Part shown: piece by piece, positions 48,784-51,375 of the stretch
Layout: every line of letters starts with the position of its first letter
Position numbering within the stretch: position 1 is the first letter of the stretch
Assembly (NCBI RefSeq): GCF_030013205.1
Contig: NZ_CP122648.1
Length of the DNA stretch: 64,000 nt
Reading direction: 5' to 3' (one strand)
Source: Escherichia coli
Lineage (GTDB): Bacteria > Pseudomonadota > Gammaproteobacteria > Enterobacterales > Enterobacteriaceae
The notes under the pieces: model-generated
What the model was told of the DNA's origin: nothing
Databases searched by the model: none
What the model saw: only the letters and a program-made list of their open reading frames with translations
Program-made: the position numbers and the translations under genes

Positions 48784-51375
48784 ATGCATCAATCTGGTTC
48801 TGTTTCTCTTTGTCGTTCCGCAATATCTGTTCTGGTGGCTACAGCGTTATATTCACCCATAGCATTGGCATCAACAGTTGAGTATGGTGAGACAGTTGAT
48901 GGTGTTGTCCTGGAAAAAGATATCCAGCTGGTTTATGGGACCGCCAATAATACGAAAATCAATCCTGGCGGAGAACAGCATATTAAAGAATTTGGTATAA
49001 GTAGTAATACTGAAATTAACGGCGGGTATCAGTACATTGAAATGAATGGCACCGCAGAATACTCAGTATTAAATGATGGTTATCAAATTGTTCAAATGGG
49101 TGGCGCAGCAAACCAGACTACCCTCAATAATGGTGTGCTACAGGTTTATGGCGCAGCGAATGATACCACCATTAAAGGCGGGCGCTTAATTATTGAAAAA
49201 GATGGGATTACCGTCTTTGCCGCTATCGAAAAGGGAGGATTACTGGAGGTTAAAGAGGGGGGATTAGCATTTGCGGTAGATCAGAAAGCAGGCGGTGCGA
49301 TTAAAACAACCACGCGGGCCATGGAGGTATTCGGAACAAACCGTCTCGGTCAGTTCGATATCAAGGATGGTATTGCTAATAATATGCTGTTGGAAAACGG
49401 CGGAAGTTTGCGAGTTGAAGAAAATGACTTCGCTTATAATACCACTGTGGATAATGGCGGCTTACTGGAGGTTATGGATGGCGGGACTGCAACTGGCGTT
49501 GATAAAAAAGCAGGCGGAAAATTAATTGTCTCAACGAATGCGCTGGAAGTGAGTGGTACAAACAGTAAAGGCCAATTTAGTATAAAAGATGGTGTGTCCA
49601 AAAATTATGAACTGGATGATGGTTCCGGGCTCATTGTTATGGAGGATACGCAGGCCATTGACACTATCCTTGATGAGCATGCCACTATGCAATCGCTGGG
49701 AAAGGATACTGGTACGAGAGTGCAGGCAAATGCGGTATATGATCTCGGTCGATCAGATCAGAATGGAAGTATAACGTATTCCTCTAAAGCCATCTCTGAA
49801 AATATGGTTATCAACAATGGCCGCGCTAATGTCTGGGCTGGCACGATGGTTAACGTTTCAGTCAGAGGGAATGATGGCATTCTTGAGGTCATGAAGCCGC
49901 AAATAAATTATGCACCCGCTATGTTGGTGGGTAGTGTCGTGGTTTCTGAGGGCGCTTCTTTAAGAACGCATGGTGCCGTGGATACCAGCAAAGCGGATGT
50001 TTCGCTCGAAAATAGCGCATGGACCATCATTGCCGATAACACTACGACGAACCAAAACACTCGCCTCAACTTAGCCAACCTTGCGATGTCCGGCGCAAAT
50101 GTGATTATGATGGCTGAGCCAGTGACTCGTTCATCAGTGACGGCAAGTGCGGAAAATTTCATTACGTTGACCACCAATACCCTGTCGGGAAACGGCAATT
50201 TTTATATGCGTACCGATATGGCTAATCATCAGAGCGATCAGCTCAACGTGACCGGTCAGGCAACAGGTGATTTCAAAATATTTGTGACGGACACAGGGGC
50301 CAGCCCGGCAGCAGGTGATAGCCTTACACTGGTAACAACGGGCGGCGGTGATGCTGCATTTACGTTGGGCAATGCCGGAGGCATTGTTGATATCGGTACG
50401 TATGAATATACCTTGCTGGATAATGGCAACCATAGCTGGAGTCTGGCAGAGAATCGCGCGCAAATTACCCCTTCAACCACTGATGTGCTGAACATGGCAG
50501 CAGCACAACCGCTGGTATTTGATGCAGAACTGTACACCGTGCGTGAGCGTCTTGGTAGCGTAAAAGGCGTTAGTTACGATACGGCGATGTGGAGTTCGGC
50601 AATTAACACCCGCAACAACGTGACCACTGATGCGGGAGCTGGCTTTGAGCAAACATTGACGGGCCTGACGCTCGGTATCGATAGCCGTTTCTCCCGTGAA
50701 GAAAGCAGCACAATTCGCGGCTTGTTCTTTGGTTACTCTCATTCTGATATTGGTTTTGATCGCGGCGGCAAAGGCAATGTCGATAGCTACACCCTGGGGG
50801 CTTATGCCGGTTGGGAGCATCAGAACGGTGCCTATGTTGATGGAGTGGTGAAAGTTGACCGTTTTGCCAACACCATCCATGGCAAGATGGGTAATGGGGC
50901 AACAGCGTTTGGCGATTACAATAGTAACGGCGCGGGTGCTCATGTCGAGAGCGGGTTCCGTTGGGTTGACGGATTGTGGAGTGTTAGACCCTATCTCGCC
51001 TTTACCGGCTTTACCACAGATGGTCAGGACTACACGTTATCAAATGGCATGCGCGCGGATGTGGGAAATACCCGCATATTACGCGCTGAAGCGGGAACGG
51101 CGGTAAGCTATCACATGGACCTGCAAAACGGTACGACGCTGGAACCCTGGCTGAAAGCCGCCGTACGTCAGGAATACGCCGATTCTAACCAGGTGAAAGT
51201 TAATGACGATGGCAAATTTAATAATGATGTGGCTGGAACCCGTGGCGTTTATCAGGCTGGGATAAGGTCATCGTTTACCCCGACGTTAAGCGGTCATTTG
51301 TCAGTCAGTTATGGCAATGGCGCAGGGGTAGAATCGCCGTGGAATTCTCAGGCGGGTGTGGTCTGGACGTTCTGA
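48784..51375 (+). CDS. yejO: autotransporter (type Va) adhesin-like protein YejO, intact
   Basis: 863-aa ORF with signal-like N-terminus, repetitive Gly/Asn-rich passenger (repeated GGxLxV units) and C-terminal beta-barrel ending ...SQAGVVWTF; uninterrupted, no IS sequence. Confidence 0.85.
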   Translation: MHQSGSVSLCRSAISVLVATALYSPIALASTVEYGETVDGVVLEKDIQLVYGTANNTKINPGGEQHIKEFGISSNTEINGGYQYIEMNGTAEYSVLNDGYQIVQMGGAANQTTLNNGVLQVYGAANDTTIKGGRLIIEKDGITVFAAIEKGGLLEVKEGGLAFAVDQKAGGAIKTTTRAMEVFGTNRLGQFDIKDGIANNMLLENGGSLRVEENDFAYNTTVDNGGLLEVMDGGTATGVDKKAGGKLIVSTNALEVSGTNSKGQFSIKDGVSKNYELDDGSGLIVMEDTQAIDTILDEHATMQSLGKDTGTRVQANAVYDLGRSDQNGSITYSSKAISENMVINNGRANVWAGTMVNVSVRGNDGILEVMKPQINYAPAMLVGSVVVSEGASLRTHGAVDTSKADVSLENSAWTIIADNTTTNQNTRLNLANLAMSGANVIMMAEPVTRSSVTASAENFITLTTNTLSGNGNFYMRTDMANHQSDQLNVTGQATGDFKIFVTDTGASPAAGDSLTLVTTGGGDAAFTLGNAGGIVDIGTYEYTLLDNGNHSWSLAENRAQITPSTTDVLNMAAAQPLVFDAELYTVRERLGSVKGVSYDTAMWSSAINTRNNVTTDAGAGFEQTLTGLTLGIDSRFSREESSTIRGLFFGYSHSDIGFDRGGKGNVDSYTLGAYAGWEHQNGAYVDGVVKVDRFANTIHGKMGNGATAFGDYNSNGAGAHVESGFRWVDGLWSVRPYLAFTGFTTDGQDYTLSNGMRADVGNTRILRAEAGTAVSYHMDLQNGTTLEPWLKAAVRQEYADSNQVKVNDDGKFNNDVAGTRGVYQAGIRSSFTPTLSGHLSVSYGNGAGVESPWNSQAGVVWTF

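Follow-up and report, generated by a model that had tools for sequence, protein, structure and literature searches.

In the 64,000-nucleotide stretch of Escherichia coli DNA considered here (contig NZ_CP122648.1; hereafter the window), yejO, a gene annotated as encoding an autotransporter, is present without interruption at positions 48784 to 51375 of the plus strand. The open reading frame (ORF) begins with ATG, comprises 863 codons and a stop (2592 bp), and encodes a protein ending in GVVWTF; the ORF table admits no longer ORF in this frame, and no insertion sequence (IS) element, frameshift or internal stop is found within 48784-51375. On the 5' side of the gene lie ccmF-dsbE-ccmH and, on the opposite strand, narP; its 3' side is bordered by phage-like DNA. 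When the segment 48400-51700 was used as a megablast query against 5426 complete E. coli genomes, 5424 matched, with the top match, at 100% identity, being the porcine enterotoxigenic E. coli (ETEC) strain ETEC4079 (NZ_CP122643), in which the Prokaryotic Genome Annotation Pipeline labels these 2592 bp "yejO: autotransporter YejO" (WP_063086637.1). The continuous 863-codon ORF free of IS interruption that an earlier note had described on this DNA is thus borne out in coordinates, length and absence of an IS by both the ORF table and the identity to ETEC4079. The gene order narP-yejO-proL-yejM is common to ETEC4079, the K-12 derivative JM83, O157:H7 strain 2149, RIVM_C037884, A1_181 and LF82, and the product has the same locus and the same length of 863 amino acids as YejO of E. 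coli (K-12 b2190; RefSeq entries such as WP_063086637.1 and WP_000554210.1). Furthermore, the protein is ~97% identical to the representative of a 90%-identity protein cluster with 16,859 full-length members named YejO, and it differs by 19 substitutions from the O157 allele and by 14 from the RIVM allele.

The corresponding locus of JM83 consists of narP, a yejO fragment of 23 codons, the transposase gene of an IS5, a yejO annotated as "missing N-terminus", tRNA-Pro and yejM. BLAST alignment places the break after ORF nucleotide 67 (window position 48850), at which point a 1195-bp IS5 intervenes. The two BLAST pieces of JM83 yejO overlap by 4 nucleotides, and at the IS5 junctions, GCGTTAT followed by GGAAGGTGCG on one side and CACCTTCC followed by TTATATTCACC on the other, the sequence TTAT is duplicated around the element; the single TTAT of the window, at 48847-48850 on the plus strand, is unoccupied. 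K-12 yejO therefore carries an IS5 in codons 22-23 that the copy described here lacks. Removal of the IS5 and one TTAT from the K-12 sequence restores an ORF of 863 codons, the product of which aligns with YejO of the window over 863 of 863 residues without gaps, at 96.6% amino acid identity and with 29 substitutions, of which codons 1-560, for signal peptide and passenger, account for 21. The first 451 nucleotides of the megablast query are 99.3% identical to K-12. Together with the conserved gene order, this identity to the IS-excised K-12 gene establishes that the gene is yejO, as had been proposed. The break in K-12 yejO results from an IS5 insertion that is specific to that lineage and lies within the codons for the signal peptide, and the gene is described in the literature as an IS5K-inactivated pseudogene (PMC11005336); the earlier note's description of K-12 yejO as an IS-disrupted pseudogene was correct, and the alignment to K-12 that it suggested finds the copy here intact.

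The encoded protein has the layout of an exported, outer-membrane-anchored polypeptide. Its first 29 residues (48784-48870, plus strand) form a predicted Sec signal peptide, MHQSGSVSLCRSAISVLVATALYSPIALA, followed after the predicted cleavage point by STVEY; by inspection, R11 lies in the n-region, residues 12-26 form a hydrophobic core with an 11-residue Kyte-Doolittle mean of up to 2.15, and A-L-A occupies positions 27-29, just before the expected cleavage. In the AlphaFold2 (AF2) model, residues 1-28 are unstructured, with a predicted local distance difference test score (pLDDT) below 50, and a beta-helix begins at about residue 30. The passenger, residues 30-561 (48871-50466, plus strand), is predicted to be a right-handed beta-helix of the Ag43/AIDA type, an assignment that draws on Pfam and NCBIfam models, on sequence matches in the PDB, and on structure prediction and comparison. 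Two copies of the AIDA repeat family PF16168 are detected (E=1.4e-51), as are three strand-loop-strand repeats (TIGR04415), and the PDB sequences matched are those of Ag43 (7koh, 1.9e-37), an AidA-I family adhesin and TibA. The beta-helix spanning residues 30-561 was returned in two AF2 runs with pLDDT mostly above 90, and Foldseek comparison of the passenger with the PDB yields Ag43 structures as the best matches (E=4e-26, ~25% identity), with TibA and pertactin also found.

Within the passenger lie two tandem units of 72-74 residues (49228-49665, plus strand), at residues 149-220 and 223-294, which are 51% identical (E=8e-22) and correspond to a repeat offset of 222 bp in a self-comparison of the yejO DNA. 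One such unit is missing from a natural variant, the in-frame 789-amino-acid protein of strain A1_181 (WP_000554212.1), which lacks alignment columns 168-241, that is, 74 codons or 222 bp. The passenger closes with a pertactin-type C-terminal domain at residues 431-555 (50074-50448, plus strand), a putative junction or autochaperone region, recognized by PF03212 (E=8.8e-45, 152 bits against a cutoff of 22, profile positions 2-120 of 121) and overlapping the PDB sequence match of pertactin 1dab to residues 367-558.

A predicted alpha-helical linker at residues 563-592 (50470-50559, plus strand), modeled by AF2 with pLDDT of ~92, connects the passenger to the translocator and is predicted to thread the barrel; consistent with this, Foldseek gives target template modeling (TM) scores of 0.81-0.86 to pre-cleavage EspP structures that include that helix. 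The translocator itself is a predicted 12-stranded beta-barrel formed by residues 600-863 (50581-51372, plus strand) and ending in W-T-F. It is recognized by PF03797 at residues 602-841 (E=1.2e-45, 156.7 bits against a cutoff of 26, profile positions 1-254 of 255) and by the NCBIfam model TIGR01414 (autotrans_barl) over residues 456-863 (E=1.2e-108, 363.9 bits). AF2 places 12 long barrel strands between residues 600 and 862 with pLDDT above 90, in a model taken from a second run that used 62 diverse homologues collected by searching a representative library with the barrel domain (mean pLDDT 88); a first run with 16 near-identical sequences was confident over the passenger and returned pLDDT of ~25 over residues 506-863, and it was not used for the barrel. 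By Foldseek, the modeled barrel matches that of BrkA (3qq2) with a target TM score of 0.90 and a root-mean-square deviation of ~3 A, and weaker matches of the model include Hbp, NalP, EstA, the AIDA-I transport unit, Hap and IgA1 protease. Of 55 diverse homologues, 53 end in F or W, and across the 62 aligned sequences F863 hardly varies. The signal-like N-terminus, the repetitive passenger and the C-terminal barrel ending in Phe that had been noticed from the letters of the sequence are hence all recovered, the first by its n/h/c layout with A-L-A at 27-29, the second by the two PF16168 copies and the tandem units, and the third by the full-length PF03797 profile, the 12 modeled strands, the match to the BrkA barrel and the W-T-F terminus; a predicted translocator barrel is present by Pfam, AF2 and Foldseek alike.

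Signal peptide, beta-helix, pertactin-like junction, linker helix, 12-strand barrel and C-terminal aromatic residue make up the set of modules expected of a type Va autotransporter, and YejO has every one of them intact in sequence and predicted structure. It is therefore very probable that 48784-51375 is an ordinary uninterrupted chromosomal allele of yejO that encodes a complete classical (type Va) autotransporter. According to the pathway established for type Va proteins, the signal peptide of 29 residues would direct Sec export and be cleaved near residue 29, the 12-strand barrel would be inserted into the outer membrane by the beta-barrel assembly machinery (BAM), which would recognize the terminal aromatic motif, the linker helix (as hairpin or linker) would occupy the pore, and the ~530-residue passenger would be displayed at the cell surface, with vectorial folding of the beta-helix proceeding from its pertactin-type C-terminal end.

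YejO shares the type Va architecture, with a beta-helix passenger of AIDA-type repeats, with Ag43 (Flu/Cah), AIDA-I and TibA, and TIGR04415 repeats are common to YejO, AIDA-I and TibA; its passenger of ~530 residues is shorter than those of Ag43, AIDA-I and TibA. Because the passenger is closest to these self-associating proteins, cell-cell aggregation, biofilm formation or adhesion would, by analogy, most likely be its activity, probably from an AT-rich promoter that is poorly expressed. A different set of relatives emerges at the C-terminus, where residues 585-863 align end to end with residues 6-284 (of 284) of the Bordetella BrkA beta-domain (3qq2), and where Vag8, also of Bordetella, is matched with E=9e-25. 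Identity of YejO to BrkA and Vag8 is just 22-23%, and the passengers of those proteins are serum resistance factors that are functionally unrelated.

The distribution of yejO among E. coli genomes bears on how its intact state is to be regarded. When only the ORF is searched, 5421 of the 5426 complete genomes match, and 4281 of the 5426 hold at least 80% of yejO. The state of the gene was surveyed in 60 genomes taken at even steps down the ranking of ORF matches. A single colinear match of 2592 bp was found in 32 of them and a match colinear from nucleotide 4 in 2, such that about 32-34 genomes, or ~55% of the sample, retain a colinear full-length yejO. Frameshifted genes with lengths of 2590-2591 are present in 4 genomes, genes split by IS5 (the K-12 lineage), IS1 or an IS3-family element in 6, the 222-bp in-frame deletion of one repeat in 3, and remnants covering 9-36% of yejO in 13. 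Individual strains illustrate these states. The yejO of O111:H8 strain 08-4455, a member of the short-length class, is annotated as frameshifted with an internal stop and has a 1-nucleotide gap at ORF nucleotide 2270; in LF82 (phylogroup B2) a remnant with two deletions is flagged as a pseudogene; and the genes of O157:H7 and RIVM are annotated as normal proteins with translations free of stops. In the O139:H1 wild-boar strain W13-16, an IS3-family element interrupts yejO near ORF nucleotide 954 (W13-16 record 1954-3284), and the coding sequence is otherwise identical to the allele of the window. W13-16 thereby holds the closest relative of this allele, independently inactivated in a porcine/wild-boar lineage, and its proL site is unoccupied.

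These frequencies agree with what has been reported. According to a passage in PMC3426408 that quotes Wells et al. (2010), YejO is present in all commensal and diarrhoeagenic genomes examined there and truncated in all uropathogenic E. coli (UPEC) examined, and sequence type 131 (ST131) has been reported to be without yejO (PMC5654935). Given the agreement of the survey with the literature, an intact yejO in an ETEC-type genome is the expected condition, and the uninterrupted gene is the majority state in E. coli and evidently the ancestral one, with the broken K-12 copy as the exception. In Nei-Gojobori comparisons of the window, reconstructed K-12, O157 and RIVM alleles, synonymous divergence (dS) is 0.04-0.08 and the ratio of nonsynonymous to synonymous divergence (dN/dS) is 0.12-0.29, with the barrel showing a lower ratio than the passenger in 2 of 3 allele comparisons. 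As judged from these substitution patterns, yejO is conserved under purifying selection, and ratios in this range imply that YejO is made and relevant in at least some settings.

Expression of the gene would depend on the narP-yejO intergenic region (48495-48783, plus strand), which presumably holds the yejO promoter and 5' untranslated region. These 289 bp are AT-rich, with a GC fraction of 0.367 (36.7%) compared to 0.516 over the entire window, and GC is ~40% in the opening 400 bp of yejO. The sequence AGGA is found at -14 to -11 before the ATG, and one isolated NarL/NarP-type heptamer lies upstream of yejO on the minus strand, from which no regulatory claim is drawn. There are no GATC sites in 48495-48783, and phase variation of the Ag43 type, governed by Dam and OxyR, is for this reason not expected for yejO. 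Similarly, no switch-like inverted repeat indicative of an invertible promoter was found upstream of yejO, and no homopolymer runs of 7 or more occur inside the ORF; with neither GATC sites, nor such a repeat, nor slippery homopolymers, nothing points to Ag43-style phase variation.

Several observations weigh against viewing yejO as a gene for a working autotransporter, and each lends something to an alternative. Inactivation of the gene has occurred independently on many occasions, through insertion of IS5, IS1 or IS3, through frameshifts and through deletions in B2 strains, which implies that yejO is dispensable in many lineages. This raises the possibility that yejO is en route to loss, with selection on it relaxed or antagonistic (for instance, against a surface antigen), and that the present copy has simply not yet been hit. 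At least five independent kinds of lesion can be counted in its favor, namely IS5 in K-12, IS1, the IS3-family insertion of W13-16, the 1-2-nucleotide length changes exemplified by O111 08-4455, and the two-deletion remnants of B2 strains such as LF82, to which may be added the reported absence from ST131 (PMC5654935) and the reported truncation in those UPEC genomes covered by the passage in PMC3426408. However, ~55% of sampled genomes retain the colinear 2592-bp gene and another 5% the in-frame one-repeat variant, pairwise dN/dS values are well under 1, and the copy here is without lesion, all of which makes a gene on its way out an unlikely description. Selection on YejO and its dispensability in many lineages can both hold. 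A more elaborate proposal, in which YejO is an expressed self-associating adhesin in the porcine ETEC lineage, aiding aggregation or gut colonization, and in which the repeated inactivations and the one-repeat variant reflect antagonistic, host- or immunity-driven selection and not neutral decay, is put forward only tentatively, as less likely than not.

Doubts about expression and function carry weight as well. The yejO gene may be intact but cryptic, silent under most conditions (through the action of H-NS on the AT-rich 5' region, for example) and with no measurable contribution to phenotype. In keeping with this idea, GC is 37-42% upstream of the gene and over its opening ~400 bp, against 52% for the window, and several cryptic autotransporter adhesin genes of K-12 are silent in laboratory culture. 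Neither a strict consensus scan nor a relaxed regular expression found a sigma-70 promoter in the narP-yejO intergenic region. In K-12, furthermore, yejO transcripts are among the least frequently detected, appearing in 106 of the 3376 data sets of an RNA-seq compendium and ranking 4501 among genes (PMC10392735), although these data stem from the IS5-split allele and are not directly transferable. Also set against a silent gene are the dN/dS values of 0.12-0.29 over ~8% synonymous divergence, which suggest that the protein sequence has been selected and hence that the protein is made somewhere; on balance a cryptic yejO is a possibility to be taken seriously, if not one to be expected. As to function, YejO scores 134.7 bits with the NCBIfam equivalog model for Ag43 (NF033177) and 70.6 bits with that for AIDA-I (NF033176), far below the cutoffs of 1200, and so it is a relative of these adhesins and a member of neither family, with self-association an analogy only. 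The searchable literature yielded no functional study of YejO in any strain, also when the related autotransporter genes ypjA, ycgV and yfaL were covered, and the protein is named there only in lists of predicted or recombinant outer-membrane proteins. This lack of a demonstrated function leaves room for a passenger with a role other than adhesion, such as an enzyme or toxin, as does the occurrence of the beta-helix scaffold in protease and esterase autotransporters (Hap, IgA1 protease, EspP and EstA, at weaker Foldseek scores). Such a role is very improbable, because Pfam and NCBIfam return AIDA repeats, pertactin and barrel only, and because Ag43 and TibA, both self-associating adhesins, outscore all other matches in sequence and in structure by many orders of magnitude. 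An enzymatic passenger was rejected as a candidate, no catalytic domain having been detected by Pfam or NCBIfam.

An intact yejO is the ordinary condition of a conserved E. coli gene, one that had been annotated and surveyed before. Its significance lies mainly in correct annotation, in that the pseudogene state of K-12 should not be read as the E. coli norm, and, as is true of most E. coli outside B2, the present strain is able to encode an additional Ag43-like surface protein. Of modest practical value, the uninterrupted allele and the natural variant that lacks 74 residues of the repeat are clonable material for a first functional test of YejO, and the recurrent inactivation of the gene could inform studies of adhesin gene loss across phylogroups.

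Downstream of the yejO stop at 51375, a hairpin terminator with a 13-bp stem followed by a T-run (51437-51467, no strand assigned) is kept intact between yejO and a remnant of proL. The sole difference between the window and ETEC4079 over the 35.6 kb compared lies in the tail of this terminator, a run of T8 versus T7 at 51468, and may be a true homopolymer polymorphism or a sequencing artefact. The left junction of an integrated element follows at 51477-51490 (minus strand), where alignment with the uninterrupted O157 attB and with attR/tRNA-Pro of ETEC4079 identifies the attL core as a 14-nucleotide copy of the 3' end of tRNA-Pro (proL) minus one G. The core reads TGGTCG-CACGAGAG in the window and TGGTCGGCACGAGAG on the tRNA-Pro side of ETEC4079 (record 36454-36470); with one G absent from the core beside yejO, the att copies do not match perfectly, and excision could be affected. 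Homology with uninterrupted genomes ends at 51494, within the tRNA-Pro 3' end, and foreign DNA starts at ~51491. These positions confirm the placement of yejO directly beside an integrative element that had been remarked upon earlier. ARAGORN finds no tRNA genes in the window; in ETEC4079, an intact tRNA-Pro adjoins the integrase 13.36 kb further on, past the window end. The element is integrated into proL ~100 bp downstream of yejO, and the yejO coding sequence and terminator are untouched. In Shigella, integration at the proL site adjoining yejO is already known (PMC4924310).

The element, which is not part of yejO, is a satellite-like insertion of 13.4 kb on the minus strand, extending from 51491 to the window end at 64000 and on to ~64852 (ETEC4079 record 23092-36453). 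By the ETEC4079 annotation and PHROG matches, it encodes an integrase, a helix-turn-helix (HTH) regulator, an Icd-like pseudogene, a DUF4222 protein, a RepA-type primase/helicase, ProQ/FinO, PerC and NUDIX proteins, a DUF2213 protein with weak similarity to head proteases, a 679-amino-acid lytic transglycosylase and a small terS/Cox-like HTH protein. Coverage of the element reaches 80% or more in just 4 of the 5426 complete E. coli genomes, and its replication module recurs in many islands resembling phage-inducible chromosomal islands (PICI). From its gene content and sequence, the element looks like a rare phage-satellite variant of the cos type. Close to the yejO-side end of the element, an 82-nucleotide stretch at 51709-51790 is 86.9% identical to the annotated cos-site of the Shiga toxin (Stx) phage phiP27, a match which suggests that packaging of the element relies on hijacking a helper phage of the cos type. 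A 26-nucleotide direct repeat, CGTATAGCT(T/A)AACGTGTAGCTAAAAA, is found at 51551-51576 of the window (ETEC4079 record 23152-23177) and again past the window end at record 36310-36335, the two copies sitting ~60 nucleotides inside the element end on the yejO side and ~120 nucleotides inside it on the integrase side; they are possibly arm-type binding sites of the integrase. Finally, direct repeats containing TTGACACTTTTT, in 3-4 copies with spacings of 55-137 nucleotides, lie at ~52520-52781 (ETEC4079 record 24121-24382), upstream of a 175-amino-acid HTH gene of the element, and this cluster looks iteron-like or operator-like in its arrangement.

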